A stretch of DNA of 51,891 bases from Polyangiaceae bacterium. Its GTDB lineage: Bacteria; Myxococcota_A; Polyangia; Polyangiales; Polyangiaceae. The stretch covers positions 1 to 51,891 of the forward strand of contig DAONZA010000008.1 of assembly GCA_035414525.1 (NCBI GenBank), in the 5' to 3' direction. Position numbers and translations under genes: made by a program. Within the stretch, counting starts at the first letter, position 1, and every line of letters starts with the position of its first letter. Below, piece after piece: positions 1-42,964 of this stretch. A model generated the notes under the pieces. That model saw nothing but the letters and a program-made list of their open reading frames with translations, did not search any database and was not told the DNA's origin.

Positions 1-37
1 TACCAATTTATTTCCATAAATAAGCGGAACGTGCTTC

Positions 38-3000
38 GTGGCTGTAGTACTAGGTTGGACGACGAGTGTGTGGGCGCAATCGCTCACCATCAACGGTGCG
101 GTGACGACGAATACATGCCCTGGAGGGACGGTGCGTGATGGCGGCAGGGCATGCCAGTATGGGGGAACGCATACGTTCGATGCGATCACGCTCATCAACG
201 GCGCTGTCGTTTACGTTGCGCCATTCAACGGTTCGGACAAAAACGCGACGGGAAATCTGGTATTCAAGAGCAAGAGCACGATTCGCATCGATGCGACTTC
301 TCGAATCACGGCGAAGGGGGCGGGATATCAGAAGAAGCTATGTGACAACGGCAGCGGGCCCACGGCGACAGCCGGAGGAAGAGGCGGGTGTGCGGTCAAG
401 GATTCTGGTGGTGGGGGAGCGCATAGGGGACGAGGGGGGCAGGGAACCAAGGATTGTTTCGTGTATGGCAACAGCCAGACCTGTCAATTTCCGCAAGAAT
501 GGGAGGAAAATTGCGGCTATTTGGCACCTTCGGGAACCAGTTGCGTGTACGCCGATGGGTTGAACGGAGCGCATAATTGTTCCAATCCCAACTACACCTG
601 CGCAAATTGCGACGGCGATCCATCGGTTGCCGGCGAGCCTTACTATCACCATATCTTGCAGCCTGAATTCGGGGCATCCGGGGGTGATAAGGGATGCGCG
701 GACGGTTGGGATGGCAGTGTTCGCTCGGGAAGTGGCGGGGGCCGGATCGTGCTTTTTGCCGCAAACGACAATCAATCCGGCGAATTAATCCTCGAGGGGC
801 GTGTGGTGGCTCATGGTGAGCGGGGCTGTGCTTCGGGCAATGATTCCGCGGGTGGCGGCGCGGGAGGAACCATCTTGCTCGTGGGAGATCATGTGGACAT
901 CCGAGCTACCGCGCGAATTCTTGCCCATGGGGGAAGAGGCGGAGATTCTCAACCCAAATGTCTGCCGTGTACGACGAATGCGAATTGCGAGTCGGGGCAG
1001 ACTTGTGTGCAAGGACGCTGTTCGCCCTGCAATTGCACGCCCTGTCAGCCGCCGTCCAACACTTGTCCAGCCGGATATCCGTGCAAAAACCTCGGTGGAG
1101 CGTTGGGCAATGTATGTGTCAATGCGGCGGGCACTTGTGATCCCTATGATCCTGGGGAAAATGAGGCAGAGTGCGCGGGGACGCAAAACTCTGGAACGTG
1201 CGATGATTGCGCCGGCGGAGGAGGCGGAGGAATCATCAACGTGCAATCCCGTGTTGCCTCCATCGATCCCAAGGCATTCTTTGACGTTCGAGGAGGGCAA
1301 GGGGGAATCTGCCCCATTTGCGCAGGGGAAGCGGGGGCTGGATCGGGGGAATTGCAGCTCGATGGTGCCTATCTTGGGGAGGTCTGCGACGGTTTCGACA
1401 ATGACTTCAATGGTCTCATCGATGACGGTCTTGGGGAGCTGAAATGCGCGGGGGGAAAGACCATTCCGGCATGTATCAATGGCATTCCACAGCAATGTCC
1501 CGCTGACCACCCAGCGTGTGTGCTTCCCGTCACGGACACGCGACCTCGTTTCGTGGTGGTGCTGGATACATCGGGCTCGATGCTGACCGATATCCGCGGT
1601 GTTCCCACCTTTGGCGATGGTTCCCCAAACCATTCGGGGGTGGATACCGCGAGTGATCCGGACCTCATCGACGGCAACAATTCGCGTCTGTTCACGGCCA
1701 AGCGAGCGCTGACGCAAGTCTTGTCTGCCTTTCCTCACGCCGATTATGCGTTGGCTCGCTATCACCAGGACGTTGGTTTGAATCGTAGTTGTCAGACAGC
1801 TTCATGGTTCGAATGTCAAAACAACTGCTGTAGTTATGACGATCCGAGAAATAATGTCCCGCCGGCTTTCGAGTGGATTCCCGCTTGCGTGCTGCCCACG
1901 ATCTATCCTGGGGCCGGGTATCCATCGGCGCTTTCCTCCAACATCAACATCGGTTGGACGAGTCAAAATGACTGCATCAACTACGCCGGTTCCTGCGGCA
2001 TACCTCGTCGCGGTGCCGATATTCTCGTGGGGTTCGATGCGCCGTTGGAGCAGCACTTGATGTGGCTCGACGGTCGGGAAACGGCTTTCAATCCCAGTAC
2101 GGTACCGGCAGATCATTGTGCTTTCGGTGCCGGAGGAGACTGCGAGATTCGCGCCACCGGACCCACGCCTCTCGCGGGTTCCCTGCATGCGGTGCATGAT
2201 TACCTCACTCCCATCGTGGCCTGTGATGGCGCGATTCCTTGCAGAAAATACTCGGTCATTCTTCTGACGGATGGCGCCGAGAGCTGCCAGGGAAACCCGG
2301 TCGCCGCTGCCCAAAACTTGCGAACTCTCGACCCCAGAACGTCTGTCGATACGTTCGTCGTGGGCTTCAGCGTGTTGCCTGAAGAAGAGAGCCAATTGAA
2401 TGCCATTGCCCATGCCGGCGGCACCAACAAAGCCTTCCTCGTGGGAAGCGAAAGCGCTCTTGCCAATGCGCTTGCCTCCATCATCGCTGCTTCTTCCGTC
2501 TATGAGCTGTGCAATGACCTCGATGACGATTGTGACGGTTTGATCGATGAGGACTTTCCTGAAAAAGGAATGGCCTGTCACGACAGCGGTTTAGGAGTTT
2601 GCCAAGGAACGGGAATCCGCGTTTGCAATGCCACGACAGACGGAACCGTATGTATGATCACGAATCCGGGAGCAAGTCCGACTCCCGAAATATGCAACGG
2701 GCTCGACGATGATTGTGATGGCCTCATCGACGAGGACGGGGTTTGTGACACGTGTATTCCGATGTCGGAAGTGTGCAATGGCAAGGATGACAATTGCAAC
2801 AGCATCGTGGATGACGATCCGATCGATGTGGGGGTAGCGTGTGGGTATTCGTTGGGGGAGTGCGTGCCTGGCAAAACGAAATGCGTCAATGGCGTACTCA
2901 TCTGTGATGGGGAAGTGGGGCCGCATCCGGAGGTCTGTGATGGGCTCGACAACGATTGCGATGGGGTGGTCGATGGGATGACGCGCCTATGTTACACGGG

Positions 3001-4216
3001 TGCGGCGGGAACGCAGGGCGTTGGGATCTGTCGCGCGGGCTCCGAAGCTTGTATCGCGGTGCAAGGCAGTGGTGTCGAAGCCTGGGGAGCATGCATCGGA
3101 CAGATCACACCGGCTTCGGAGATCTGTGATGGGCTCGACAACGATTGCAACGGTTTGGTTGACGACCGCGTGCCCGATGGTTTGGGTCACTTCACTGGAG
3201 ACCCCTGCTGTGCTCATGGTTCCAAATGTGGCACGGGTGAATGCACCGAAGGGGTCTACGTCTGCGCGGGTTCGCAGGTGGTTTGCGATGGTGGAAAGGG
3301 ACCATCGATGGAACTGTGCGACCATCTCGACAACGATTGCAATGGGGCGATCGATGACGTGCCTGGCATCGGAACCGCGTGTATTTTGCCCAGTGGATGT
3401 GCGGGAGAGCTTGCGTGTGATTACGCAACGGGTGGGCTTGCTTGCGTGTCGCCTACCATTCCGGTGTTGGAGATATGCAACGGAATCGACGACGATTGTG
3501 ATGGGCAAGTGGATGAAGAGCCCGAGGTAGCGCAAAACGATTCTCGCGTGGGGGTAGCGTGCAAGGTACCGGAGCCTCCTCATGACAAGCCGCCGTGCAA
3601 AGCAGGTATCACGGTATGCCGCAACGGCGTCATTGTGTGCGAGGGAGCTATCGAACCAGAGCCGGAAATCTGTGATGGGATAGATAACGATTGCGATGGA
3701 ATTCCTGATCAACCCGATCCTTGTCCAGGGGATACGGTATGCGATCAAGGAATATGCGTGGCTCCTTGTGGTTCCGGGGAGTTCCCCTGTCCAGGCGGGT
3801 TTTCTTGTGTCGATGGCTATTGTGTTCCCAATTCATCGTTGGACGCGGGAACGGGGGGCTCTGGAGGGACCGCGGGAGCGGGAGGTTCTGGGGGAAGTTC
3901 GGTGGATGCAGGAGATGATGGCGCCTTGGCCGATGGCGCCATCCATGATTCGAGTATGGGAGGCAGCGGTGGAACCACGGGTATGGGTGGTATGGCAGGA
4001 AACAATCCGGATGCTTCTGCCGCGGGTACGGGAGGGAAGGGGTCTGGGCCCCCACCCGAAAACTACGGACTTACCACCGGCGGCGGAGGAATTGCCTGCG
4101 GAATTGCTGTTCCGAAGACGAATCGTCGATGGCTTATGCTCGGTGCCTTGGGCTTGGTTGCCCTGGCCGTGCGCCGTTCACGACGAGAGGCTTTCGGTCA
4201 AGGAGGGTGGCGATGA
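38..4216 (+). CDS. Very large secreted Cys-rich repeat protein. Regions: an N-terminal Gly-rich beta-helix-like region, a vWA domain, 9 MopE/TIGR02232-type repeats (CDGxDNDCDGxxDE), a Gly/Ser-rich linker and a MYXO-CTERM-like sorting tail
   Basis: 1392-aa ORF. Its only in-frame start in the window is GTG at 38, which follows an in-frame stop at 17-19. The N-terminus is a short hydrophobic stretch. A MIDAS-like motif FVVVLDTSGSM ... VILLTDGAE marks the vWA domain. Nine copies of C(N/D)GxD(D/N)DC(D/N)GxxD(E/D) are present. The C-terminus reads GGGGIACGIAVPKTNRRWLMLGALGLVALAVRRSRRE: Gly/Cys, then a hydrophobic span, then Arg-rich, which is the MYXO-CTERM pattern. A TGA/ATG overlap (ATGA at 4213-4216) couples it to the next gene. 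Confidence 0.8.
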   Translation: MAVVLGWTTSVWAQSLTINGAVTTNTCPGGTVRDGGRACQYGGTHTFDAITLINGAVVYVAPFNGSDKNATGNLVFKSKSTIRIDATSRITAKGAGYQKKLCDNGSGPTATAGGRGGCAVKDSGGGGAHRGRGGQGTKDCFVYGNSQTCQFPQEWEENCGYLAPSGTSCVYADGLNGAHNCSNPNYTCANCDGDPSVAGEPYYHHILQPEFGASGGDKGCADGWDGSVRSGSGGGRIVLFAANDNQSGELILEGRVVAHGERGCASGNDSAGGGAGGTILLVGDHVDIRATARILAHGGRGGDSQPKCLPCTTNANCESGQTCVQGRCSPCNCTPCQPPSNTCPAGYPCKNLGGALGNVCVNAAGTCDPYDPGENEAECAGTQNSGTCDDCAGGGGGGIINVQSRVASIDPKAFFDVRGGQGGICPICAGEAGAGSGELQLDGAYLGEVCDGFDNDFNGLIDDGLGELKCAGGKTIPACINGIPQQCPADHPACVLPVTDTRPRFVVVLDTSGSMLTDIRGVPTFGDGSPNHSGVDTASDPDLIDGNNSRLFTAKRALTQVLSAFPHADYALARYHQDVGLNRSCQTASWFECQNNCCSYDDPRNNVPPAFEWIPACVLPTIYPGAGYPSALSSNINIGWTSQNDCINYAGSCGIPRRGADILVGFDAPLEQHLMWLDGRETAFNPSTVPADHCAFGAGGDCEIRATGPTPLAGSLHAVHDYLTPIVACDGAIPCRKYSVILLTDGAESCQGNPVAAAQNLRTLDPRTSVDTFVVGFSVLPEEESQLNAIAHAGGTNKAFLVGSESALANALASIIAASSVYELCNDLDDDCDGLIDEDFPEKGMACHDSGLGVCQGTGIRVCNATTDGTVCMITNPGASPTPEICNGLDDDCDGLIDEDGVCDTCIPMSEVCNGKDDNCNSIVDDDPIDVGVACGYSLGECVPGKTKCVNGVLICDGEVGPHPEVCDGLDNDCDGVVDGMTRLCYTGAAGTQGVGICRAGSEACIAVQGSGVEAWGACIGQITPASEICDGLDNDCNGLVDDRVPDGLGHFTGDPCCAHGSKCGTGECTEGVYVCAGSQVVCDGGKGPSMELCDHLDNDCNGAIDDVPGIGTACILPSGCAGELACDYATGGLACVSPTIPVLEICNGIDDDCDGQVDEEPEVAQNDSRVGVACKVPEPPHDKPPCKAGITVCRNGVIVCEGAIEPEPEICDGIDNDCDGIPDQPDPCPGDTVCDQGICVAPCGSGEFPCPGGFSCVDGYCVPNSSLDAGTGGSGGTAGAGGSGGSSVDAGDDGALADGAIHDSSMGGSGGTTGMGGMAGNNPDASAAGTGGKGSGPPPENYGLTTGGGGIACGIAVPKTNRRWLMLGALGLVALAVRRSRREAFGQGGWR

Positions 4217-6372
4217 GCCTTGATTTGCGCATGGGTGAGGCCGCCTTACTCGCCGTCTTGGTTGGTTTGAATACTGGTTGTTCCAACGAAGCGTATTGCT
4301 ACACCTGCGGTGATCACGATTCATCGGCGGAATCTGGGGTGGCTGGCTCTTCGGGAACCGGCGGATCTGGTGGTTCCGATGGCGGTGTGTTCTACCCGGA
4401 AACAGGACAGCCGGAGTCGTCGCTCGAAGGGGGCGATGAGCTTTCGGATGGCGCTCCGTGCCAAGCGGACACGCAAAATGACCCGCTCAATTGTGGAGCT
4501 TGCGGCTTCGTATGCGACCTTTTCGGAGCCTTTCCAAAATGCGAGCAAGGGATTTGCAAAATCGATTCGTGCGCCCCGAACTTCTACGATATCAACGGTA
4601 TCGACTCGGACGGATGCGAGTATCCGTGTACGATGACCAACGGCGGCGTTGAGATTTGCGATACCAAGGACAACGATTGCAACGGACTCATCGATGAGGG
4701 CTTCGATCTATCGAAAGACCCGAAAAACTGCGGCGGATGCGGTATTGTTTGCGACCTTCCGAACGCTACGGCGCGCTGTGATGACTCGGGCGCGTTTCCC
4801 ACATGTGCCATTGACCAATGCGATCCGGGGTATGCGGACATCGATGGGCTAGCAAGCTCAGGCTGTGAATACGCCTGCCCCGTGTTTCCGATTCAGCCCG
4901 AGCAATGCAATGCGGTTGACGATAATTGCGATGGCAGGATCAACGAAGGCAATCCAGGGGGAGGGGAGCCTTGCGAAGAGACCTGTCCGAATGGCGAATG
5001 CAAAGGGCAATGTACGCCGGGAACGACCACGTGTGTGGGAACGAAATTGGTTTGTGTGCCCGGTGTCGGACCAAGCCTCGAAGTATGCGACGGAATCGAC
5101 AACGACTGTGATGGCGAGGTTGATGAAGGGTTCGACTTGATGAACGACCCCGCGCATTGTGGCCAATGCAATCATGCCTGTGTGATGGACAATGCCATCG
5201 GCGGCTGCGTACAAGGAAAATGTGTGATTAGCGCGTGCTTGCCGGGCTTCGCATCCATCAATGGCAATGACTCGGATGGCTGTGAGTACAAGTGCCCCGT
5301 GTATCCCACCGCCCCTGAGGTCTGCAATGGGATGGATGATGATTGCAATGGCGTTGTGGATGATCCCATCGTAGTGGCAGCGCAGAAGCCAGATGGCAAG
5401 TTCTGCAATCCACAGCCCTTATTGCCCAATCCCTGTAAGGGAACGGACTTCGTTTGCACGGGAAAAACGGGATGGCGCTGCAATTACGGACCCGAGGTCG
5501 AGGTCGATGGCCAGGGCAAAGTCGTGTTGGTGGAGACGCGTTGTGACGGTAAGGATGGCAATTGCAATGGTCAGGTAGATGAATCTTGGCCGGACCTGGG
5601 TTCGGAATGTGACAACGGCGAGCATGGTGCCTGTCGAGATGTGGGGATTCGCATCTGCGATCCAAACGACAACACAAAAACGACCTGCGATCTGAGTCCG
5701 TTGCCTGATCCGGACCCATCGGCGCCGCGGGCGGAAACCTGTAATGGGGTGGATGACGACTGCAACGGGCAGGTCGATGATGGGATCGTCGATGACATGG
5801 TGGAGGTGAAGGTAGGGGCGCTTCACTTTTTCATCGACCGTTTCGAGGCGTCGCGTCCAGACGCTACGGCCACCGACCCCGGCTGGATGGAAACCCGTAG
5901 ATGTGTAAATAGTGGTGTATATCCATGGACTTACGCCAATTATGCCGAGGCCGAAGCCGCTTGCGCAAAGACGGGACACCGATTGTGTACCGCGCAGGAA
6001 TATCGAGTGGCGTGTGAGAGTGCGGCGGGGCATCTATACCCTTACGGCAACGTTTACGAGCCGATGACGTGCAATGGGCTTGATTATGATGGGGTGCCTG
6101 GAGGGGCGAATGACAACGTTTTGATTCCGACAGGGAATCTCCTTCAATGTGTGGCGCCAGGTTCGATTTTCGATCTTTCTGGGAATGCGGCGGAATGGAC
6201 AAGCTCGGTGACGTCGAACACCGGACCGCCCACGAACCTGGACATTCATGTGGTCATGGGTGGGTCTTATCAGACGCCAGCTCTTGGTTTGTCCTGCGGT
6301 TTCGATCTCAGCCGGTTTGCGGAAAACGCAATCTTGCCCGAGCTCGGCTTTCGATGCTGCAAAGACCCGTGA
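4213..6372 (+). CDS. Lipoprotein with tandem Cys-rich modules fused to a C-terminal FGE-sulfatase (SUMF1-like, DUF323) domain
   Basis: I place the start at the ATG at 4213, which overlaps the upstream stop. This is preferred over the ORF-track start at 4129 because of the signal and lipobox LLAVLVGLNTGCSNE. Three repeats of about 50 aa (NCGxCGxxC...GxDSDGCEYxC) each alternate with MopE-type repeats (CDTKDNDCNGLIDEG and similar). The C-terminal domain has FGE hallmarks: HFFIDRFEASRPDA ... GNAAEWTSS ... MGGSY ... LGFRCC at the extreme C-terminus. Confidence 0.8.
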   Translation: MSLDLRMGEAALLAVLVGLNTGCSNEAYCYTCGDHDSSAESGVAGSSGTGGSGGSDGGVFYPETGQPESSLEGGDELSDGAPCQADTQNDPLNCGACGFVCDLFGAFPKCEQGICKIDSCAPNFYDINGIDSDGCEYPCTMTNGGVEICDTKDNDCNGLIDEGFDLSKDPKNCGGCGIVCDLPNATARCDDSGAFPTCAIDQCDPGYADIDGLASSGCEYACPVFPIQPEQCNAVDDNCDGRINEGNPGGGEPCEETCPNGECKGQCTPGTTTCVGTKLVCVPGVGPSLEVCDGIDNDCDGEVDEGFDLMNDPAHCGQCNHACVMDNAIGGCVQGKCVISACLPGFASINGNDSDGCEYKCPVYPTAPEVCNGMDDDCNGVVDDPIVVAAQKPDGKFCNPQPLLPNPCKGTDFVCTGKTGWRCNYGPEVEVDGQGKVVLVETRCDGKDGNCNGQVDESWPDLGSECDNGEHGACRDVGIRICDPNDNTKTTCDLSPLPDPDPSAPRAETCNGVDDDCNGQVDDGIVDDMVEVKVGALHFFIDRFEASRPDATATDPGWMETRRCVNSGVYPWTYANYAEAEAACAKTGHRLCTAQEYRVACESAAGHLYPYGNVYEPMTCNGLDYDGVPGGANDNVLIPTGNLLQCVAPGSIFDLSGNAAEWTSSVTSNTGPPTNLDIHVVMGGSYQTPALGLSCGFDLSRFAENAILPELGFRCCKDP

Positions 6373-6464: not shown

Positions 6465-7238
6465 ATGTGCAAATCAATGGCTCAACATCTTTCCCCTCGG
6501 AGCCCCGGGCGTCTGCTGCGAGCAGCACTCTGGGGTATTGTCTTGCTCGTCCCAGGCGTGGCTTTGGCGGCAACCGTCAAAGGTCAGGTCAAGGGGCATA
6601 ACGAACTCATCAATCCGGTTTGGGAGGAGTCCGCGCGACCGGATACCAACCGCTATACGTGGAGGGAGCCTTCGCCCACGGTCCGTTCGGATTATCGAAG
6701 GCTTTTTGGTCTAGCACCGAAGGAACTATGCATTGCGGGGGTGAGCAAAAACAAAGTAGAGCCTCCCAAAGTTCCGATTCTCGTGCTTGTGGGAGGGGGT
6801 CGAACCACACCCGTTACGTTGGTGGTAGCGCCCGGAACACGCCTTCGTTTTCGCAACAACGACCCTTTCAAACACCGTCTTTATGCAGTGAACGAAGCCT
6901 CTTTTTCTCCGGCGGACATCGCGATGGCTGCGGAGCGAGACTGGACGGCGCCGGGACCAGGAACGTATGAGCTTCGCGACGAGCTGGCGCCTAGTCTTCG
7001 CTCTTGGATCGTGGTCAAAGAGGGGGTCGCCTCCATCGGATATCCAAACCGACAAGGACAGTTTTTCCTCACCCTCGAACCTGGTGAATACCAGCTCGAA
7101 TACTTCTTCGCGGGAAAACCGATCGGTACGCCTCGTCCTGTATCCGTGGGAGGGCAGGACCTCGACATCACCCGCGAACCCATCCAAGTTGCCCTTCCCA
7201 AAGACAAAAACGCGTCCGGTGACGCGGAGAAAAAATAG
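6465..7238 (+). CDS. Secreted hypothetical protein, predicted beta-sandwich; no recognisable catalytic motif
   Basis: The N-terminal signal peptide is MAQHLSPRSPGRLLRAALWGIVLLVPGVALA-ATV; an alternative ATG lies at 6477. The ORF ends 10 nt before the next gene, so the two are probably co-transcribed. No motif I can name. Confidence 0.55.
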   Translation: MCKSMAQHLSPRSPGRLLRAALWGIVLLVPGVALAATVKGQVKGHNELINPVWEESARPDTNRYTWREPSPTVRSDYRRLFGLAPKELCIAGVSKNKVEPPKVPILVLVGGGRTTPVTLVVAPGTRLRFRNNDPFKHRLYAVNEASFSPADIAMAAERDWTAPGPGTYELRDELAPSLRSWIVVKEGVASIGYPNRQGQFFLTLEPGEYQLEYFFAGKPIGTPRPVSVGGQDLDITREPIQVALPKDKNASGDAEKK

Positions 7239-7247
7239 GGAGGCCGA

Positions 7248-8975
7248 ATGCTTCTCTCCCGATTTTGGTATCTCATCCTCGCTCTGGCTCTGGGACTTTT
7301 CGCCAGTGGCTTGTACCTCGCCCAGACCGTCTACAACCGCGCTAGCCGCGACTCCATGGAACAAGCACTCTCCGCCGATACCCAAGTCGTCAAGTGGTAT
7401 CTCAATGACGACGCGCGTCGACGCTCGAGTTTGCTGCTCAAGGTTTGTCTCGACGAAACCATTCGAAAAGAACTCCACAAAGCCAGCTCAAAAGACGAAA
7501 AAGTCCCCCAAGACGTTCGGGACCGTACACGCGCGGCACTCAGAAAACTCGTCGACGAAATGCCTGCCGAGTATCAGTTCTCCTCGCTGTTTGCGATTGA
7601 TCAACTCGGACGTGTCATCGGTCAGGTTGGCTTCGATCAAGCTGCTGGAATCGAAAACTTCGATATGGGTGGGTATGCCATCGTTGCCGATGCGCTCCAT
7701 GGTTGGGTACGCGATGATGCATGGGTTTTCGATGACCGTATCTATCTTGTCGTAGCTCGCCCCGTCGAAGTGGATACCGCGCAAATGCCCGCTGGTGCGG
7801 TTGTCGGTCTTCGAATCGTGGACACGAGTTATGCAAAACAATTGTCCAAACGCTCTGGCGCGACGGTTGGCTTTTTCGCGGGCGGTACTGTCAAAGCCAA
7901 AGCATCGCCGGACGGGGTCAGTTCGACACAGCTCGATACGATCGTGGCGGACATCAAAAATCTGGCGCAAGACGATACCTACAAGGAGAAAGGAACGAGC
8001 AAACCCAAAATCCTCATGGACGATATCGGGGTGATTTATTCCAAGATCCCAGGAGAAGCGTGGGACCTGGGGGCCGGTTATGTGGTGGGCCGCTCGGCGA
8101 GTGTCGTCAAAAATCCTTTCGATCTGCTTCAACTTGCCGACGCAAAAGAGAAAAAGAGCCAGCCTTGGTGGATCATCGCTTTGATTGTCGTGCTGGGGGC
8201 TGGACTCGGTCTCGTTTTCTCTCTTTTCGAACACACTCGGCCTCTTCGAATTCTCAAGGCTGAAGCCGAACGCCTGGCCAAGGGCGAGATCGACATGCTT
8301 CAAGTCAGCAAATTCAGAGGATTGTACCGAAAAATCGCAAGCGACCTGAATGATGGGACAGACAAGGTGGCGGCCAAAGGCGGTGTCCCACGAAAAGCCG
8401 CCGACCTCGAATCGGTGCTTGGACCCATCCCAGCTCAGCCCGAAATGAGTGCGTTTTCATTCCCGGTCGATGGCGCTTCCCCGTCCACATCTGGGCCTCT
8501 TCGTGTGCCTCCGCTCCGTGAATCGGCCCCAAAAATGCCCGTGCAAATGCCTGCTCCCAAACCATCACCGGACAGCAAGCCCCAAATGCCGGCTCCAAAG
8601 CCAGACTCACCGAAAATGCCTGCGCCAAAACCGGCCGACGCGATGACTCCCAACCTAGCCCCCTCCGAGGATGATGACGATGCTACCGTCGTTTCCGCGG
8701 TCCCTCCCGAAATCCTCGAAGCCTCCGCGACCGGTGCCCATGCCGCGGTGGAAGAAGCCGGTGAGATCGCCGAATGGCACAACACCTTCGAGGAATTCCT
8801 CCGAACCAAAAAACAATGTGGAGAGCCCACCTCCGGGCTGACCTTCGAAAAGTTTCAGGTCACGCTCCGAAAAAATCGAGAGCAACTCATTGCCAAAACC
8901 AAGTGTAAACGCGTCAAATTCACGGTCTACGTCAAGGATGGGAGGGCTGCCCTCAAAGCTAGCCCCGTTCGATAA
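7248..8975 (+). CDS. Bitopic/polytopic membrane protein. Layout: N-terminal TM, a periplasmic sensor-like region of about 270 aa, a second TM, a HAMP-like amphipathic linker, a Pro-rich PAPKP repeat linker, and a conserved Cys-containing C-terminal domain of about 70 aa
   Basis: TM1 is FWYLILALALGLFASGLYLA. TM2 is WWIIALIVVLGAGLGLVFSLF, followed by RPLRILKAEAERLAKGEID. The Pro-rich repeats read MPAPKPSPDSKPQMPAPKPDSPKMPAPKP. The C-terminus reads EFLRTKKQCGEPTSGLTFEKFQVTLRKNREQLIAKTKCKRVKFTVYVKDGRAALKA, which resembles a myxobacterial paralogous C-terminal module. I cannot name the family with confidence. Confidence 0.7.
   Translation: MLLSRFWYLILALALGLFASGLYLAQTVYNRASRDSMEQALSADTQVVKWYLNDDARRRSSLLLKVCLDETIRKELHKASSKDEKVPQDVRDRTRAALRKLVDEMPAEYQFSSLFAIDQLGRVIGQVGFDQAAGIENFDMGGYAIVADALHGWVRDDAWVFDDRIYLVVARPVEVDTAQMPAGAVVGLRIVDTSYAKQLSKRSGATVGFFAGGTVKAKASPDGVSSTQLDTIVADIKNLAQDDTYKEKGTSKPKILMDDIGVIYSKIPGEAWDLGAGYVVGRSASVVKNPFDLLQLADAKEKKSQPWWIIALIVVLGAGLGLVFSLFEHTRPLRILKAEAERLAKGEIDMLQVSKFRGLYRKIASDLNDGTDKVAAKGGVPRKAADLESVLGPIPAQPEMSAFSFPVDGASPSTSGPLRVPPLRESAPKMPVQMPAPKPSPDSKPQMPAPKPDSPKMPAPKPADAMTPNLAPSEDDDDATVVSAVPPEILEASATGAHAAVEEAGEIAEWHNTFEEFLRTKKQCGEPTSGLTFEKFQVTLRKNREQLIAKTKCKRVKFTVYVKDGRAALKASPVR
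8535..8637 (+). repeat. In-frame proline-rich tandem repeat (M/K)PAPKP(S/D) inside the 7248..8975 CDS
   Basis: Three to four imperfect copies of atgcc(t/g)gc(t/g)ccaaa(a/g)cc, encoding MPAPKP. Such repeats are prone to slippage. Confidence 0.6.
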
Positions 8976-9005
8976 GCAACCCTGGCTCCCCAAAGGAGTG
9001 TCCCC

Positions 9006-10559
9006 ATGCAGGTGACTCGATGTCCTTCGGTGGTTTGCATCGCTGCTGCGTTATCTCTCGCGCTTGTTTCGAGTCGTACGGATGCTTCGACGGGCTACGA
9101 ATTCCCCGAAAACGGAACCGAACAGCTTGGCCGTGCCGGCGCGTGGACCGCGCGCGCTTCCAACTCTCTCGCCACGTTTTTCAATCCCGCCGGCCTCGCC
9201 GGCCAGCCTTCCAGCCTGCTGCTCAATTCTTCCTTGATCTGGCAAAAAAATTGTCTGAAACGCACCTACCCCGACGGCAACCCCGTTCGTCTGGGAAATG
9301 GTGGCGCCTATCAATACCCCAGCGAAGTCTGCAACGACGATAGCGGTACCCCTTTCCCTAACCCGCAACTCGCGGGAGTCCTACGATTGTCCGACCGTCT
9401 TGGCTTGGGCCTCGCCGTCCTCGGCCCCTCGACCCGCGGCCAATTCACGTTCCCATCCCATGTCACGGGCTCTCGAGTCGGTGGAGTCGAACGAGAAGTC
9501 CCGAGCCCCCAACGCTATCTGCTGCAAAGCGACGAACTATTGTTCATATGGCCCCAAATCGGTATCGGTTGGGAACCCATCGATGATTTGCGCTTCGGTG
9601 CTTCGTTGATCTGGGGCATCGCTCGGCTGAAGTTCTCCATCCTCGCTGCCGGACGATCCGCCGGCGAAACCATTCAAAACTACCCATACCTCGCGGAACA
9701 ATACCTCGATTTCCAAGCCGATATCGATGTCAAAGACCTGTTCGTTCCGGGATTCACCGTCGGCACGTTATGGTCGCCCTCGCCAAACATTGACGTGGCT
9801 GCTTGGTACCACTGGATGGACGATATCCGCGCCAAAGGAGATATGGCTGTCGAAGGAAGTGTCTACGGAGACCCGCCCCATCAACGCCCAAGCTCACGAA
9901 ACTCCGTGCGTGCTCCCAAAGACAGCGTGCAGGTCGTTGCGCCATGGCCGATGCAGGCCCGAGTTGGTTTTCGATGGCACCAACCTAGAGACGGAATCCA
10001 TTCGAAAATGCGGGATCCCATCGCCAACGACGTTTGGGATATCGAACTCGATATGACGTGGGCCAACAACTCGCACTTCAAATATCTCGACGCCACCATG
10101 CCCGACGGCGTCTTTCTCGAAGTGCATAACCCCGCGGATCCCAATCCGAATTCCAGTGTCGCCTTCGCCATGCCGACCGATGCGCGCGTCCCACACCATT
10201 GGAAAGACTCCTTCGGTTTTCGTCTCGGCGGCGACTACGTCATGTTGCCCAATAGACTGGCCGCACGTGCCGGCGCCTTCTTCGATTCCGAAGCGCAAGA
10301 CCCCAAATACCTGAACGTCGATTACGTCCCCTCTCGCAAGTTCGGTCTGCATGTGGGGGGAACCGTCCGGTTTGGAGCCCTCGACCTGATGGTGGCTTAT
10401 GCGCACGTCTTTTATCAAGGCCTCGACAACCAAGGGGACGGCAAAACCCAAGGCCTGGCTGGCGCTGCCCCCACGTATCGCACAGACTATCCAGTCAATG
10501 GCGGTTCCAATCGTTCCGTCATCAATGCGCTATCGTTTGGAGCTTCTCACTCGTTCTGA
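9006..10559 (+). CDS. FadL/TodX/OmpP1-family outer-membrane channel for hydrophobic compounds
   Basis: Signal peptide MQVTRCPSVVCIAAALSLALVSSRTDAS. The family N-terminal signature reads GYEFPENGTEQLGRAGAWTARASNSLATFFNPAGLA. The protein ends with a C-terminal Phe (SFGASHSF), typical of beta-barrel OMPs. Confidence 0.8.
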   Translation: MQVTRCPSVVCIAAALSLALVSSRTDASTGYEFPENGTEQLGRAGAWTARASNSLATFFNPAGLAGQPSSLLLNSSLIWQKNCLKRTYPDGNPVRLGNGGAYQYPSEVCNDDSGTPFPNPQLAGVLRLSDRLGLGLAVLGPSTRGQFTFPSHVTGSRVGGVEREVPSPQRYLLQSDELLFIWPQIGIGWEPIDDLRFGASLIWGIARLKFSILAAGRSAGETIQNYPYLAEQYLDFQADIDVKDLFVPGFTVGTLWSPSPNIDVAAWYHWMDDIRAKGDMAVEGSVYGDPPHQRPSSRNSVRAPKDSVQVVAPWPMQARVGFRWHQPRDGIHSKMRDPIANDVWDIELDMTWANNSHFKYLDATMPDGVFLEVHNPADPNPNSSVAFAMPTDARVPHHWKDSFGFRLGGDYVMLPNRLAARAGAFFDSEAQDPKYLNVDYVPSRKFGLHVGGTVRFGALDLMVAYAHVFYQGLDNQGDGKTQGLAGAAPTYRTDYPVNGGSNRSVINALSFGASHSF

Positions 10560-15195: not shown

Positions 15196-15272
15196 TGGCA
15201 CGCCCGACTGGATTCGAACCAGTGACCCGCGGCTTAGAAGGCCGCTGCTCTATCCAACTGAGCTACGGGCGC
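15196..15272 (-). tRNA. tRNA-Arg (anticodon TCT), CCA-encoded
   Basis: The reverse complement reads GCGCCCGTAGCTCAGTTGGATAGAGCAGCGGCCTTCTAAGCCGCGGGTCACTGGTTCGAATCCAGTCGGGCGTGCCA. It has a 7-bp acceptor stem, a D-loop AGTTGGATA, an anticodon loop CT-TCT-AA, a T-loop TTCGAATCC and a terminal CCA. Confidence 0.85.
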
Positions 15273-20643: not shown

Positions 20644-23352
20644 ATGGCTCCCATGACGACGCTTCCTCCGGTTGGGGCCACCGATGCCCTGTATATCGTT
20701 GATCTGTCTGGCTACGTGTTTCGCGCATACCACGCGATTGCTCCGCTTTCCTCTCCGACCGGCGAGCCGTCGCATGCCACCTACGGCACTATCACGATGC
20801 TCAACCGACTGATCGATGAGCGAAAGCCGACGCTGATGGCGGTGGCCATGGATTCGAAAGGTCCGTCGTTTCGAAAGCAAATCGACAATGCCTACAAAGC
20901 GAATCGCCCGCCTCCTCCCGAAGACCTTTCGATTCAAATGCAACGCGTTCGCGGGCTCGTGTCCTTGCTTGGTCTTACCGTCTGGAAACAAGATGGTTTC
21001 GAAGCGGATGACTTGATCGCCAGTGGGGTGAAACGAGCCTGCTCGGAAGGTCTTCGCGTGGTGATCATCAGCGCGGACAAGGACCTCATGCAGTTGGTTG
21101 GTGCATCTGTGGTTATGTGGGACACGATGCGCAACAAGGTGTACGGGCCCGCGGAAGTGCGAGAAAAATTTGGGGTTTTTCCTGATAAAATGAGGGATCT
21201 TCTCGCCATGACGGGAGATAGTTCCGACAATGTGATGGGCATTCCCTCGGTCGGACCGAAAACGGCGGCCAAGCTGCTGGATCAATACGGATCCATCGAA
21301 GGGGTGTACGAAGGAATCGACGAGATCAAAGGCAAGCTTCGGGAGAACCTTGTCGAGCATCGCGCCTCTGCGGAACTTGCACGTTTGCTCGTGACCTTGC
21401 GCGACGACTTGGACGTTTCGTTCGAGCGATCGGCCTTGGATTTTCATGCTCGAACGGATTGGAAAGGCTTGGAGGCCGCGTATGTCGAGCTTGGGTTCTC
21501 GCGCATGCTCGAAGCGATGCGTCCACAAATGGAGATCGACTTCGATCAGCCCCAGGCAGACGATTATCGCTTGGTGCTTGAGGAGGCGGATCTTCGTTCG
21601 GCCGTGCAAGCCTGTCATGAGGCTGGCCTGATGGGCCTGGATACGGAAACGGATTCCACCGACGCCATGCGAGCTCGCCTCGTGGGAATCTCTCTATCCT
21701 GTCGTCCCCATGAGGGGTGGTACATCCCGGTCGGGCATGCTTACCTTGGCGTTCCTTCGCAATTGGACATCGACCGCGTTCGGGAAATTCTCAATCCACT
21801 GCTGATTTCGAGTGAAGTTCGCAAGGTGGGGCACCATGTGAAGTTCGACGAAACCGTGTTGCGCCGCCACGGCTTCGGTCCGATGCAAGCCGTGGCCTCC
21901 GATACGATGATCGAGAGTTATCTGTTGGACCCTGAAGCTTCCCATGGACTGAAGGAGGTTGCGAAACGCGAACTTCACGTGGAGATGATGACCTACGAGC
22001 AGGTGGTGGGAGGCAAAGGTTCGAAGGCAGTCACATTCGATAAGGTGCCACTCGAACGAGCGTCTCGTTATGCGTGCGCGGATGCGGATCTGTCTTTGCA
22101 GCTTCACCACCTGCAGCGAGATCGAATCGAACGACAAGGGATGAGCGATCTTCTCACGCAAGTCGAAATCCCGTTGATTTCCGTGCTGATAGATATGGAG
22201 AGCGCTGGCGTGCTGATCGATGTCATTCAGCTCGAGCAGCTAGGATCGATGCTGCAAGAGCGGATGAAAGAGTTGGAAGCTACAGCGAAACAGCAGGCGG
22301 GACGCGACTTCAACGTGGGTTCCCCCCGACAGCTCGAAACGATTCTCTTCGATGAGCTTGGGCTTCCTGTGAAAAAGCGGACCAAAAGCGCGCGCAGCAC
22401 CGATGCCAGTGTGCTGGAAGCGTTGGTGGACATGCATCCGTTGGTTGGGACGATTCTTGCCCTTCGTCAGCTTTCGAAGCTGCAAAGCACCTATGTCGAA
22501 ACCCTGCCGAAGTTGGTTCATCCGACCACGGGGCGTATTCATACACGGTTCAATCAAAGTGTGGCCGCCACGGGTAGGCTTTCCTCCAGCGATCCGAACT
22601 TGCAAAATATCCCGGTGCGAACGCAAGAAGGCCTGGCCATTCGTCGCGCTTTCATTGCTCCACAAGGCTATACGTTGTTGAGCGCCGACTATTCGCAGAT
22701 CGAATTGCGGGTCCTGGCGCATCTATCGAAAGATCCAGTGCTCATCGATGCCTTCAGAAATCATGAAGATATTCATTCGCGCACCGCGATGGAAATCTTT
22801 GGCGTATCGTCGCAACAGGTAACGGCCGAGCAACGTCGTCAAGCCAAGACGATCAACTTTGGTGTGATTTATGGAATGGGAGAAGTGGCGCTATCGAAGA
22901 AACTAGGGATCGAGCGGGGGGAGGCTCGACAATTCATCGATCGGTATTTTTCGCGGTACGAAGGCGTGCGAAGGTTCATGGATTCGACGTTGGAAGCGGC
23001 ACGTCAAGGGCAGGCCGTGGAAACCATTCTAGGTCGACGTCGGTATTTGCCGGATTTGCGTAGCTCAAACCGTGTCCTGCGCGCCCAAGCGGAGCGAATA
23101 GCGGGAAATACGCCAATTCAAGGGAGCGCCGCCGATCTATTGAAACTTGCAATGGTTCGTTTGGCGGCTCCTGTCGTGCCAGGGGCCAGAATGATTTTGA
23201 CGGTTCACGATGAATTGATCTTCGAAGTACCCGAAAACCATGTGGAGGAAGCCGAAAACCGCGTTCGTCAGGCCATGGAGTCGGTGATGGATCTGGATGT
23301 GCCGTTGCTCGTCGATGTCGGGGTTGGACCAAGCTGGGCCGACGCCCACTGA
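20644..23352 (+). CDS. polA: DNA polymerase I with 5'-3' exonuclease, 3'-5' exonuclease and polymerase domains
   Basis: 902 aa. The N-terminal 5' nuclease domain reads LYIVDLSGYVFRAYHA. Polymerase motif A is LLSADYSQIELRVLAHLS, motif B is RRQAKTINFGVIYGM and motif C is VHDELIFE. Confidence 0.95.
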   Translation: MAPMTTLPPVGATDALYIVDLSGYVFRAYHAIAPLSSPTGEPSHATYGTITMLNRLIDERKPTLMAVAMDSKGPSFRKQIDNAYKANRPPPPEDLSIQMQRVRGLVSLLGLTVWKQDGFEADDLIASGVKRACSEGLRVVIISADKDLMQLVGASVVMWDTMRNKVYGPAEVREKFGVFPDKMRDLLAMTGDSSDNVMGIPSVGPKTAAKLLDQYGSIEGVYEGIDEIKGKLRENLVEHRASAELARLLVTLRDDLDVSFERSALDFHARTDWKGLEAAYVELGFSRMLEAMRPQMEIDFDQPQADDYRLVLEEADLRSAVQACHEAGLMGLDTETDSTDAMRARLVGISLSCRPHEGWYIPVGHAYLGVPSQLDIDRVREILNPLLISSEVRKVGHHVKFDETVLRRHGFGPMQAVASDTMIESYLLDPEASHGLKEVAKRELHVEMMTYEQVVGGKGSKAVTFDKVPLERASRYACADADLSLQLHHLQRDRIERQGMSDLLTQVEIPLISVLIDMESAGVLIDVIQLEQLGSMLQERMKELEATAKQQAGRDFNVGSPRQLETILFDELGLPVKKRTKSARSTDASVLEALVDMHPLVGTILALRQLSKLQSTYVETLPKLVHPTTGRIHTRFNQSVAATGRLSSSDPNLQNIPVRTQEGLAIRRAFIAPQGYTLLSADYSQIELRVLAHLSKDPVLIDAFRNHEDIHSRTAMEIFGVSSQQVTAEQRRQAKTINFGVIYGMGEVALSKKLGIERGEARQFIDRYFSRYEGVRRFMDSTLEAARQGQAVETILGRRRYLPDLRSSNRVLRAQAERIAGNTPIQGSAADLLKLAMVRLAAPVVPGARMILTVHDELIFEVPENHVEEAENRVRQAMESVMDLDVPLLVDVGVGPSWADAH

Positions 23353-24808: not shown

Positions 24809-25489
24809 ATGCCAAGACGCCGTCGTTCGGAAAACGAGGTCGAAGCCGTGCGAAACCAGATCTTGGACGAGGCATTGAACTTGTTCGTGGAGGCAGGTTG
24901 GCAAGGTTTTTCCATGCGCAAACTCGGCGCTCGCCTGGGCATCGCCGCGAAAACGGTCTACAACTACTTCGCCTCCCAAGACGAATTGTACCTCGGTCTG
25001 CTCACCCGCGGCTTTCATAGCCTCGGTCAGGCTCTTGCCAAAGCGGCCGAACCCCATACCAACCCATTCGAACGGCTCGACGCGCTGATCGATGCCTACG
25101 TGACGTTTGCCTTCGACAATACACACCTATACGGGTTGATGTTCACCTGGCATGTGCCCAAGTATGACGACTACGTGGGCACGGCGATGGAGAACACGGC
25201 TCGGGTCGAACTCGAGACGGCGCTCGACAGTCTCCGCCTGACTGCCACTACCATCGCTGCCTGCACCGGCACGCCGCCAGCAAGGGATGACCTGTACTTC
25301 ATCACGGTTCGCCTGTGGACGCAGTTACATGGTTATATCGCAGGCATCCACAACCACCTCATCGACTACATGCATCCTGACCCGGCTTCTCTGAAAGAGC
25401 GCATGATCACACGGATCAAAAATAGCGTTGTCCATGAGATTCTCGCTCTGAACCCCACCGCTGCGCGTGAGCAGCCAACCCTGCAGTGA
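24809..25489 (+). CDS. TetR/AcrR-family transcriptional regulator
   Basis: The N-terminal HTH is RNQILDEALNLFVEAGWQGFSMRKLGARLGIAAKTVYNYFASQDELYLGL. It sits immediately upstream of the glycyl-radical operon, with a 15-nt gap. Confidence 0.85.
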   Translation: MPRRRRSENEVEAVRNQILDEALNLFVEAGWQGFSMRKLGARLGIAAKTVYNYFASQDELYLGLLTRGFHSLGQALAKAAEPHTNPFERLDALIDAYVTFAFDNTHLYGLMFTWHVPKYDDYVGTAMENTARVELETALDSLRLTATTIAACTGTPPARDDLYFITVRLWTQLHGYIAGIHNHLIDYMHPDPASLKERMITRIKNSVVHEILALNPTAAREQPTLQ

Positions 25490-25504
25490 GGAGGGATAGC
25501 AGCG

Positions 25505-26437
25505 ATGACGGCCATTCTGACGAAGCACGAACCGTTGCTGCTCGAGGTGAAAGGCAACGCGCTTGACGACGGTCCGGGCATTCGCTCGGTGGTTTTTTTC
25601 AAGGGCTGTAAGCTGTCGTGCCGATGGTGTCATAACCCGGAAAGTTTGAGTCAAAACGCTGAGTTGTCATTTAATGTTGCGGATTGTATTTCCGGCTGTA
25701 CCCGATGTCGTGGCCACTGCCCCGAGGACGCCATCATGCCTGGTGTCGGCATCAATCGTTGGGCCTGCACCAGATGCTTCGACTGCGTACCGGTCTGTCC
25801 ATCGGGGGCTTTGCGCCAGGTGGGTAAGCCAGCCAACGTCGCCGAGTTGATGGCCAAGCTTCGCGCGGATAAGCCCTTTTATGAAGCCTCCGGAGGCGGC
25901 GTCACCTTTTCCGGGGGAGAGCCGACTCTAGCGATGGAGCTGCTTGGGGAACTTGCCGCGGCCTGTCGTGCCGAAGGTATACACACCCTTTTAGAGACTG
26001 CCGGATACTTTCGGTGGGAGCCGTTCGAACGAGGGGTGCTGCCGCATCTGAACGCCATCTATTATGACCTGAAACTCATGGATTCCGAGGACCACCGTGC
26101 GTATTGCGGGGTGCCGAACGAGCGGATCCTGGCCAATTTCAAGCGGTTGGTGGAGCTATCCCGTGCCGGGACGTTCGATCTGCAGCCGCGCATTCCGCTG
26201 GTCCCGGATATCACCGCGACGGAAGAAAACCTGACGGCGATCGGCCGATTTCTGCTCGATGTGGGGGTTCGTCAAGTCCGGTTGCTGGATTACAATCCAA
26301 CCTGGGTAGACAAGGGTCCTCAATTGGGAATTGCTAACAAATTCACTGAGTTAGATATTATGCGGACATGGCTGCCCCGCGGCCTGGCAGCCCGACTGCG
26401 CCAACATCTCGTTGATCTCGGCCTGGAGGCGATATGA
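25505..26437 (+). CDS. Glycyl-radical enzyme activating enzyme. It is a radical SAM enzyme with two auxiliary ferredoxin-like clusters, the TIGR02494-type seen with GRE eliminases
   Basis: The radical-SAM motif is CKLSCRWCHNPE (CxxxCxxC). There are two ferredoxin-like Cys clusters, CTRCRGHCPEDAI and CTRCFDCVPVCPSGAL, and a GGE motif (FSGGEPTL). The stop overlaps the GRE start (ATGA). Confidence 0.9.
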   Translation: MTAILTKHEPLLLEVKGNALDDGPGIRSVVFFKGCKLSCRWCHNPESLSQNAELSFNVADCISGCTRCRGHCPEDAIMPGVGINRWACTRCFDCVPVCPSGALRQVGKPANVAELMAKLRADKPFYEASGGGVTFSGGEPTLAMELLGELAAACRAEGIHTLLETAGYFRWEPFERGVLPHLNAIYYDLKLMDSEDHRAYCGVPNERILANFKRLVELSRAGTFDLQPRIPLVPDITATEENLTAIGRFLLDVGVRQVRLLDYNPTWVDKGPQLGIANKFTELDIMRTWLPRGLAARLRQHLVDLGLEAI

Positions 26438-36918: not shown

Positions 36919-37240
36919 CCTCGCGGCTCTTTTTGTTGTGCGGCGAACTCCAGCATCATCTGCAGTGCGGTTTCGAGATCTTCTCGTTGGGGAGGTTCGG
37001 GCAAGCTCATGAGCTGGCGTTTGAGTTGCAATAGATGGGTTCCGAACTGCTGATAGCGAAGACGGAAAGAATCCGAGGGGGCGTCTTGGATCCAACGCGC
37101 AACGATCTCTTGCAACTCGTCGAGATCGCTATCGACGAGCAGTTGAGCCATTTGGGAAGCCATGAGGTGAGGCATTGGGGGAAAGTCTAGCTCGGTCTTT
37201 GACGAAACGCATGGGTCGAGGCATAGGGATGGCAGTGCGA

Positions 37241-42893: not shown

Positions 42894-42964
42894 ATTCCAA
42901 GGATATTTTTACTGATTCGGTGATATAGACGCGACAGGTGGGTTCCTTTCGCAAGGAGATAGAT

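Follow-up and report, generated by a model that had tools for sequence, protein, structure and literature searches.

The beginning of contig DAONZA010000008.1 from a Polyangiaceae bacterium (assembly GCA_035414525.1), analysed here over a stretch of 51,891 nucleotides (the window), carries two adjacent genes for large cysteine-rich proteins, called chain A (gene 1) and chain B (gene 2), which together form a candidate two-chain envelope receptor. The G+C content of the pair region is ~57%, and the same locus has been assembled from many metagenomes. NCBI names the identical proteins of both genes 'MopE-related protein'; the gene 1 product is 100% identical to one of these (P0121, 'MopE-related protein [Polyangiaceae bacterium]'). 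The features of the pair, and of an insertion sequence (IS) that abuts it, are as follows.

1..50, + strand: right end of an IS630-like (DDE_3 transposase) element, placed by junction alignment; the element extends beyond the window start
51..52, + strand: duplicated TA target, placed by junction alignment with the intact allele
38..4216, + strand: gene 1, mechanical open reading frame (ORF) of 1392 aa with a GTG start, truncated at its 5' end by the IS
77..1357, + strand: N-terminal right-handed beta-helix head region (aa ~14-440), rich in Gly and interrupted by a Cys-rich insert (aa ~300-400)
1499..2503, + strand: von Willebrand factor A (vWA) domain (aa ~488-822) with Cys-rich insertions and a complete MIDAS (metal-ion-dependent adhesion site), VVLDTSGSM ... 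TGPTPL ... LLTDGAES
2510..3832, + strand: gene 1 stalk (aa 825-1265), eight motifs Cx5[DN]C[DN]x3[DP], each with a small Cys-rich hairpin after it, and a C-terminal Cys knot
3833..4072, + strand: Gly/Ser/Ala-rich low-complexity tether (aa ~1266-1345), read from the translation
4073..4213, + strand: MYXO-CTERM-like tripartite tail, TTGGGGIAC, spacer, LMLGALGLVALAV, RRSRRE
4202..4216, + strand: translational-coupling junction, with GGAGGG at 4202-4207 and ATG 4213-4215 overlapping TGA 4214-4216
4213..6372, + strand: gene 2, 719 aa from ATG 4213, predicted lipoprotein
4495..5790, + strand: gene 2 stalk (aa ~95-526), three ~55-aa modules alternating with six MopE-type motifs and small Cys hairpins
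5791..6369, + strand: FGE-type C-type-lectin-like domain (aa ~527-719), without the catalytic Cys pair

The original prediction, made from the sequence of this window, had described two ORFs joined by an ATGA overlap at 4213, and both are confirmed. The Shine-Dalgarno sequence of gene 2 is encoded by the last codons of the gene 1 tail. An alternative start of gene 2 at ATG 4129 was ruled out by the gene calls on at least 23 contigs, which carry the exact 719-aa product from ATG 4213, and by the orthologues, which use the ATGA start. The predicted domain architecture was also essentially right: chain A is a vWA protein with a Cys-containing tail of transmembrane (TM) segment plus arginines, chain B is a predicted lipoprotein with a C-terminal FGE-fold domain, and MopE-type motifs are found in both.

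In chain A, the vWA domain gives a sub-threshold match to Pfam VWA, and the MIDAS residues (DxSxS...T...D) are conserved across an alignment of 49 gene 1 homologues, which places the protein among the vWA proteins with a MIDAS. An AlphaFold2 model of residues 14-830 has a predicted local confidence (pLDDT) of 87.6 and a predicted template modelling score (pTM) of 0.88. A PDB sequence search with the whole gene 1 protein gave no match. When the two proteins were scanned against NCBIfam (E≤0.01), the sole result was a weak match to AgmC_N (NF047640) over the Gly-rich beta-helix stretch; with 24.8 bits against a cut-off of 275, a link to AgmC and gliding motility was dropped.

The tail of chain A reads TTGGGGIACGIAVPKTNRRW-LMLGALGLVALAV-RRSRREAFGQGGWR and has the tripartite MYXO-CTERM architecture, a Gly/Cys signature (GGGGIAC), a TM segment (LMLGALGLVALAV) and an Arg-rich end (RRSRRE), with a Cys-to-TM spacer that exceeds that of the published MYXO-CTERM logo in both length and charge. 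About 100 orthologues end in TGGGGCxC, a spacer, a TM segment and RRRR, and the window tail is homologous to these in position. When nine orthologue tails were scored on TIGR03901, the MYXO-CTERM model, four reached the 20-bit cut-off (20.0, 24.4, 24.2 and 36.1 bits), one scored 19.9 and two 12-17; the Minicystis tail matches the related JDVT-CTERM at 30 bits instead, and the tail within the fused ORF of L046 (one of the fetched loci, see below) reaches 26.7 bits. Since the orthologue tails match the model and end in TGGGGCxC-TM-RRRR, the gene 1 tail is, on this comparison, a diverged MYXO-CTERM-type signal; the predicted MYXO-CTERM tail therefore stands in its layout and in its orthologues, while TIGR03901 misses this copy. 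A myxosortase sorting pathway has been described, and the MYXO-CTERM clients studied so far reach the cell surface (PMC11980579). By analogy with that pathway, chain A would be processed by a myxosortase and displayed at the surface; Pfam scans found no CPBP-family protease among the window ORFs scanned.

Chain B begins with MSLDLRMGEAALLAVLVGLNTGC, and its signal peptide (aa 1-22) is followed by a Cys predicted to be lipid-modified (Cys23, 4279-4281). The N-terminus reads MSLDLRMGEAALLAVLVGLNTG/C, with LVGLNTG/C as its lipobox region. In 120 homologue N-termini the Cys lies at the same position in nearly all full-length proteins, most of which have the canonical L-[ASTP]-G-C; the lipoprotein signal that had been predicted for gene 2 is probably present, with Cys23 aligned to the canonical lipobox end of the orthologues. 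Cys23 is followed by a conserved, membrane-proximal C-x5-C-x2-C, a Gly/Ser tether, the stalk and the FGE-type head. The three CxxC-rich modules noted earlier are borne out at ~55 aa each: they share the pattern NCGxCGxxC...GCEYxC, are 44-46% identical and have 8 invariant Cys, and each gives a weak CPL1-like match (E 0.004-0.035), which is below the cut-off.

The head of chain B had been taken for a complete FGE (SUMF1-like) domain with its catalytic Cys pair at the terminal GFRCC. It does belong to the FGE-sulfatase superfamily and has its fold (PF03781, 41 bits against a cut-off of 23.3), yet the matched part runs from position 90 to position 254 of the 255-position profile, and the profile-to-PDB alignments start no earlier than ~residue 117-120 of pFGE and FGE, so that the domain is not complete. 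A profile built from 38 diverse family members matched pFGE/SUMF2 best in the PDB (1.6e-17), followed by CalU17, FGE (~4e-13), PorK (~8e-10) and EgtB. The best structural match is the variable (binding) protein of a diversity-generating retroelement (DGR), and FGE, EgtB, PvdO, CalU17 and ToxD are also matched structurally. Protein 2 ends in ...LGFRCCKDP. When the GGSY...GLxC stretch of the family was aligned with GGSYMCHRSYCYRYRC of human FGE, only the last Cys was aligned, that of YRYRC, which we take to be Cys346 and part of a structural disulfide. The positions aligned to Cys336 and Cys341 of human FGE are not Cys, and no CxxxxC is found there in 38/38 family members. The Cu(I)-binding Cys pair of the catalytic FGE/SUMF1 enzymes, the lack of which had been named beforehand as a ground for refuting the initial reading, is absent from the whole domain, and the best PDB match is the inactive pFGE/SUMF2. 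The head carries nine invariant Cys, the terminal CC included. By this alignment, GFRC is a structural motif common to the whole FGE superfamily and not an active site, and the FGE-like head is probably a binding module, not an enzyme. The head can be compared with pFGE/SUMF2 and with FGE-fold binding modules such as Treponema TvpA, Bordetella phage Mtd and PorK/GldK. It differs from these in that sequence models match only the C-terminal two-thirds of the FGE domain, in its nine invariant Cys and in its place at the end of a long repeat stalk, and no DGR or type IX secretion genes were seen beside it. A second, smaller FGE-sulfatase-domain protein is encoded elsewhere in the window (37175..38473, +; 432 aa, Pfam 40.9 bits, a predicted lipoprotein with ..LVLGSC). 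It shares the subfamily signatures of the gene 2 head: RLCTELEWERAC and REWTSS are present, only one Cys precedes LGFRCC, and the catalytic CxxxxC pair is missing.

ORF1 contains the acidic Cys motif in 8 copies plus 1 degenerate copy (second Cys replaced by Phe, aa ~446, before the vWA domain), and ORF2 has 5 copies plus 1 variant (CNAVDDNCDGRIN). The motif scan thus gives 13 copies and 2 variants, and the 15 motifs originally counted in both proteins are recovered if the degenerate copy is included. PF11617 is matched far beyond chance by both proteins, with 105.8 bits for gene 1 and 95 bits for gene 2 against a cut-off of 27 and in six stretches each. TIGR02232, the repeat family proposed at first, found no match in either protein in the NCBIfam scan, and that name was given up. 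A profile of nine repeat units had no match in the PDB even at E≤10, so the unit is not classifiable as EGF, TSP3, LDL-A or MopE by any solved structure; outside the FGE domain, neither the proteins nor the repeat profile match any solved chain.

A copper-binding-like role had also been suggested for the motif from its occurrence in MopE. The Cu(I) site of MopE consists of two His and a kynurenine in the C-terminal MopE* domain, CaCl2 stabilises MopE*, and a disordered N-terminal acidic stretch has been suggested to aid weak Cu(II) binding (PMC3423442). The MopE/CorA proteins of methanotrophs share with the pair the short PF11617 acidic Cys motif, but the MopE* domain with its Cu(I) site has no counterpart here: neither MopE* nor CorA was among the PDB matches of the two proteins or of the repeat profile. 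The pair does not belong to the MopE/CorA copper proteins, and with the Cu(I) site of MopE lying elsewhere the copper reading of the motif is not upheld. The motif presumably resembles Ca2+ loops of the DxDxDG type as well as the cluster of acidic residues in LDL-A modules, and Ca2+-stabilised stalk units are probably the more plausible reading.

One genome per species was scanned with the FGE-domain alignment, and 80 loci were fetched. The two genes recur as a conserved pair in Polyangia, Kofleriaceae, Sandaracinaceae and Bradymonadia. Minicystis rosea has proteins of 1304 and 713 aa and Sandaracinus amylolyticus of 1543 and 1236 aa, each with a 4-bp overlap, and a Bradymonadia metagenome-assembled genome (MAG) has a linked pair of 1260 and 1132 aa with a longer called overlap. 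The upstream proteins of these three align to gene 1 over the vWA domain and the repeats, in Minicystis also over the beta-helix, and their flanking genes are unrelated. Wherever the FGE match reaches 39% identity or more and the DNA upstream extends for 8 kb or more (15/15 loci), a clear vWA match lies upstream on the same strand. The more distant FGE domains (Fibrobacterota, Archangium, Corallococcus) lack such a match, and none of the Myxococcaceae/Archangiaceae loci among the 80 has a linked vWA gene. The genes directly downstream in the window (6465..10559, +) encode a secreted 257-aa protein without a family, an MXAN_5187-family protein (395 bits; one region is weakly CHASE4-like) and an outer-membrane protein of the FadL/TodX type. 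These genes and a glycosyltransferase gene were considered as parts of the system and ruled out by the different flanks in Minicystis, Sandaracinus and Bradymonadia.

The junction is conserved as well. Overlaps were read in 16 loci, 14 of them ATGA or GTGA and 2 TAGTG or TGATG, with GGAGG a few bases upstream in most. The vWA proteins frequently end in ...KEAA, ...GGAR or ...GGWR (P0121-P0240; junctions of L012 and L014-L032) because their last 3-5 codons are dual-coded as GGAGG, the Shine-Dalgarno sequence of gene 2. In six genomes (L025, L039, L044, L046, L052, L072) the vWA frame continues without a stop into the FGE domain. A locus was counted as a fusion only if the frame of its vWA region extends through the FGE domain; open frames across both genes in other GC-rich loci (e.g. 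L016) lie in a different frame and were set aside as chance. The fused proteins retain GGGGCxC-TM-RRRR, followed immediately by a lipoprotein signal peptide with its lipobox Cys. Such a topology would suit a hairpin in the membrane, with the two stalks leaving it on one side, and would be compatible with cleavage at both anchors. The MopE-motif counts of the partners co-vary from 3/4 to 19/17 (Spearman 0.97, 24 loci, kinship ignored). The component domains and sorting signals are already known and the proteins are generically annotated; the conserved pairing, the dual-coded junction, the polyprotein variants and the matched stalks appear to be undescribed, and searches of the literature on AgmC with gliding, on MopE/Myxococcota/FGE-sulfatase and on PF11617/'MopE-related' found nothing relevant on the pair.

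In the window itself gene 1 is interrupted by the IS630-like element. The intact allele (L005), both junctions on L001 and the L002/window sequence align as ...ATCGTCC-TA-GTACTACAG...CTGTAGTAC-TA-GGTTGG. On L001, a 311-kb ENA contig, atgaggcgtggaacgtttgtgctcctggtgacgatgatcgtcc is followed by TA-GTACTACAG..., and at the opposite end ...CTGTAGTAC-TA joins ggttggacg (window 42-58); the element occupies 4341..~5846 there, and its ORF matches DDE_3 at 2e-21. The insertion site is ~codon 15 of the gene 1 signal peptide. The GTG at 38 falls within the IS terminal repeat and is not the native start, and an in-frame TAA lies upstream of it at 17-19; the N-terminus of ORF1 (MAVVLGWTTSVWA) is too short for a signal peptide and has no charged n-region. 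The intact allele, from another sample (Logan contig L005, L005:2761), encodes 1402 aa with the signal peptide MRRGTFVLLVTMIVLGWTTSVWA/QS, and differs from the IS-bearing allele by a synonymous Leu codon at the insertion site (CTG vs CTA). Gene 1 of this genome has thus been cut off from its promoter region and ribosome-binding site and is left without a start codon and with half a signal peptide. Contigs from several samples (L002, L003, L006-L008) end ~110 nt 5' of ORF1 inside the right-hand IS end; 14 of the 24 contigs read for a neighbouring gene resemble L006 in this break, which is put down to the element being repeated, and the intact allele was found on one contig only. The element (terminal repeat GTACTACAG) is evidently multicopy in the organism, and many assemblies break at it.

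Apart from the insertion, both ORFs are intact over 1392 and 719 codons. They are 60-77% identical to full-length orthologues and keep all key residues, so the insertion appears to be recent. Chain A, and with it the system, is probably inactivated or at least deregulated in this genome, which matters to users of the annotation of this MAG. Tight co-expression as a family trait is strongly supported by the conserved ATGA/GTGA overlap and the six in-frame fusions; the stoichiometric co-expression read from the ATGA overlap cannot be assumed in this window, because the IS removed the start codon, ribosome-binding site, promoter region and half of the signal peptide of gene 1.

With moderate confidence, we read the pair as the two chains of one stalked envelope receptor or adhesin, integrin-like and most likely at the cell surface, and not as an enzyme or a copper protein. 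In its native order, chain A would consist of a Sec signal peptide, a beta-helix and vWA (MIDAS) head, a disulfide-rich stalk whose motifs probably bind Ca2+, a flexible tether and the MYXO-CTERM-type tail. Chain B would mirror it with a lipoprotein signal and lipidated Cys, a tether, a stalk of the same motifs and a distal FGE-fold, C-type-lectin-like head. Both would be made 1:1, by translational coupling or as one polyprotein, and the stalk lengths would be kept matched so that the heads come together in a composite site, integrin-like and metal-dependent, for binding a ligand. A two-chain receptor is the simplest explanation for an anchor-tether-stalk-head order in opposite orientations, for 1:1 production and for matched stalks. 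The known MYXO-CTERM clients and stalks of up to 19 repeats favour the surface as the place where the processed and lipidated chains would pair and act in adhesion or reception.

Among characterised proteins, chain A can be compared with CglD of M. xanthus, a lipid-anchored, Cys-rich vWA/MIDAS adhesin with DxDxDG-type repeats and an EGF-like disulfide-bonded stalk, which acts with a second vWA lipoprotein (bioRxiv 10.1101/2023.10.19.562135). CglD and CglB are integrin-like vWA adhesins that belong to the focal-adhesion machinery of gliding. CglD/CglB and chain A are alike in their lipid anchor (predicted for chain A), Cys-rich stalk, vWA/MIDAS domain and acidic repeats, and the likeness is architectural only. 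Chain A differs from CglD in having a C-terminal sorting tail as its anchor, not an N-terminal lipobox, and an additional beta-helix head, and its partner carries an FGE-fold head where CglB has a vWA domain; no glt/agl genes lie close by, and neither the window nor the loci of three other genera showed any motility genes. TraA/TraB, the outer-membrane-exchange receptor of M. xanthus and the prototype MYXO-CTERM client, offers a second comparison: like chain A, TraA has a Sec signal, a distal recognition head, a Cys-rich stalk, a MYXO-CTERM tail and an adjoining partner gene. The head of TraA is reportedly PA14-like, and TraB is said to be OmpA-like. No PA14-like head was found in the pair, whose partner is a stalked predicted lipoprotein and whose window tail is below the TIGR03901 threshold, and the NCBIfam TraA model gave no better than E 0.039, on one orthologue tail. 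The eukaryotic integrin alpha/beta dimer is an analogy only; homology is shown for the vWA fold alone, and the pair has predicted lipid anchors in place of TM helices and a lectin-fold second head in place of a beta-propeller.

Several observations weigh against the two-chain receptor. The last 104 and the last 60 residues of the window tail have no TIGR03901 match even at E≤10, and the window lipobox (L-N-T-G-C) is one residue longer than the canonical one. In five loci (L034, L040, L042, L054, L056) a vWA-like region lies downstream of the FGE match. Inverted order of the two genes or pairs in tandem could account for this; L040 has the start of a beta-helix/vWA gene ~100 nt past the end of its FGE domain. 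The correlation of repeat counts takes no account of phylogeny, and the 4/4 state is common to many loci. That the motif may bind Ca2+ is suggested by its presumed resemblance to DxDxDG loops, and the repeat matches no solved structure. The interaction of the chains, their localisation, their lipidation and the existence of a ligand are likewise features that we infer. Myxobacterial lipoproteins often face the periplasm, and a periplasm-facing chain B could not pair with a surface chain A.

In a different placement of the same parts, the pair would be a periplasmic structural complex, with chain B an inward-facing outer-membrane lipoprotein like PorK/GldK and chain A in the inner membrane or inner leaflet, the two forming an envelope-spanning scaffold, for example of gliding or secretion. 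The weak similarity to the AgmC N-terminal domain is in line with this, and a hairpin polyprotein would first put both anchors in the inner membrane. We consider such a scaffold unlikely, however, because AgmC is matched with a score that falls far short of the cut-off, stalks with as many as 19 and 17 repeats seem by our estimate too long for the periplasm, Pfam scans showed no secretion- or motility-machinery families beside the pair, the flanks differ between four genera, and the studied MYXO-CTERM clients go to the cell surface (PMC11980579). It is also quite improbable that the proteins are surface or periplasmic metal-handling scaffolds (for Cu, as in MopE, or for Ca) with the 15 motifs as functional and not structural sites. 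The strong match to PF11617, the 'putative metal-binding motif', and the wealth of Asp/Asn in the motifs speak for metal handling, as do the stabilisation of MopE* by CaCl2 and the suggested part of its acidic stretch in weak Cu(II) binding (PMC3423442); the ORF at 6465..7238 also gives a cupredoxin-like match, which is insignificant (E 0.11). Yet the high-affinity Cu(I) site of MopE lies in MopE* and not in the motif, the PDB searches gave no MopE* or CorA match for either protein, and no copper-homeostasis family was found in Pfam scans of the window, whose flanking genes vary between genera. The conserved heads (vWA MIDAS, beta-helix and lectin fold) and the predicted lipid anchors suggest recognition or adhesion, with the motifs as Ca-stabilised stalk units.

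There is likewise little chance, in our view, that chain B is an active FGE-like or FGE-fold enzyme on a stalk of metal-binding repeats, a reading close to the original one, with chain A or further exported proteins as its substrates and the oxidation of Cys/Ser as one conceivable modification. Such an enzyme would suit the FGE-sulfatase score, the structural matches to FGE, EgtB, PvdO, CalU17 and ToxD, the name 'SUMF1/EgtB/PvdO family nonheme iron enzyme' that NCBI gives to some family members, and the tight linkage to a single partner, which also fits an enzyme with its substrate. It is at odds with the catalytic-Cys positions, which are not Cys in any of the 38 members and leave the YRYRC Cys as the lone conserved one, with the inactive pFGE and the DGR variable protein as best sequence and structural matches, and with sequence models that cover only the C-terminal two-thirds of the FGE domain. 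In EgtB/OvoA the iron site is housed by a DinB-type domain of its own, which seems to be missing from chain B; Pfam scans of the window ORFs gave no sulfatase-family match; and a 1:1 fusion with matched stalk lengths would be unusual for an enzyme and its substrate. As for the locus in the window, the IS could mean that it is a decaying pseudogene pair without current function, its architecture a relic. The start codon and the first 14 codons are split from the rest of gene 1, the remaining N-terminus (MAVVLGWTTSVWA) lacks a charged n-region, and most fetched contigs break at the IS end, with one intact-allele contig only. Decay is nevertheless improbable, since both ORFs are otherwise intact and as close to full-length orthologues as given above with key residues kept, gene 2 retains its own Shine-Dalgarno sequence, and an intact allele coexists in another sample; the argument concerns this strain only and not the family.

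Returning to the two-chain receptor, a more tentative proposal, possible at best, is that it is born as a membrane hairpin, the chain A tail and the chain B lipoprotein signal inserting side by side, in some lineages as one polyprotein, after which two cuts would leave two adjacent lipid anchors. The cuts would be made by a myxosortase and signal peptidase II and would yield length-matched, Ca2+-stiffened legs under a composite MIDAS/lectin head, and the membrane-proximal Cys motifs (GGGGCxC and C-x5-C-x2-C) might join the chains by disulfides. If true, heterodimeric surface adhesins would have a further, new way of being assembled, and nature would offer an example of one ORF whose product passes through two distinct pathways of lipoprotein type.

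In myxobacteria, gliding, the recognition of kin, predation and multicellular development all rely on receptors at the cell surface, and the few MYXO-CTERM clients and vWA adhesins that have been studied (TraA, CglB, CglD) are all from Myxococcus. The matched stalks, the conserved overlap with a ribosome-binding site in the tail codons and the natural fusions make a heterodimeric integrin-like receptor testable in the cultivable genera Sandaracinus, Minicystis and Polyangium. The analysis also corrects the attractive idea of the FGE-like domain as a complete enzyme.

The remainder of the window holds several genes of separate interest. An 829-aa bacterial MVP-like protein is encoded at 42938..45427 (+), with matches to the Major Vault Protein shoulder domain (1.8e-27) and the vault repeat (7e-06). 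Genes for a TetR regulator, for a radical-SAM activase and for a glycyl-radical enzyme of 1035 aa (PFL-like 4.9e-154, Gly_radical 2e-20) lie in a row at 24809..29541 (+), a cluster that fits an anaerobic lifestyle of this Polyangiaceae MAG. The housekeeping context includes a TldD/PmbA metallopeptidase pair (32009..34908, +), DNA polymerase I (20644..23352, +), tRNA-Arg(TCT) (15196..15272, -) and tRNA-Pro(CGG) (45548..45622, +).

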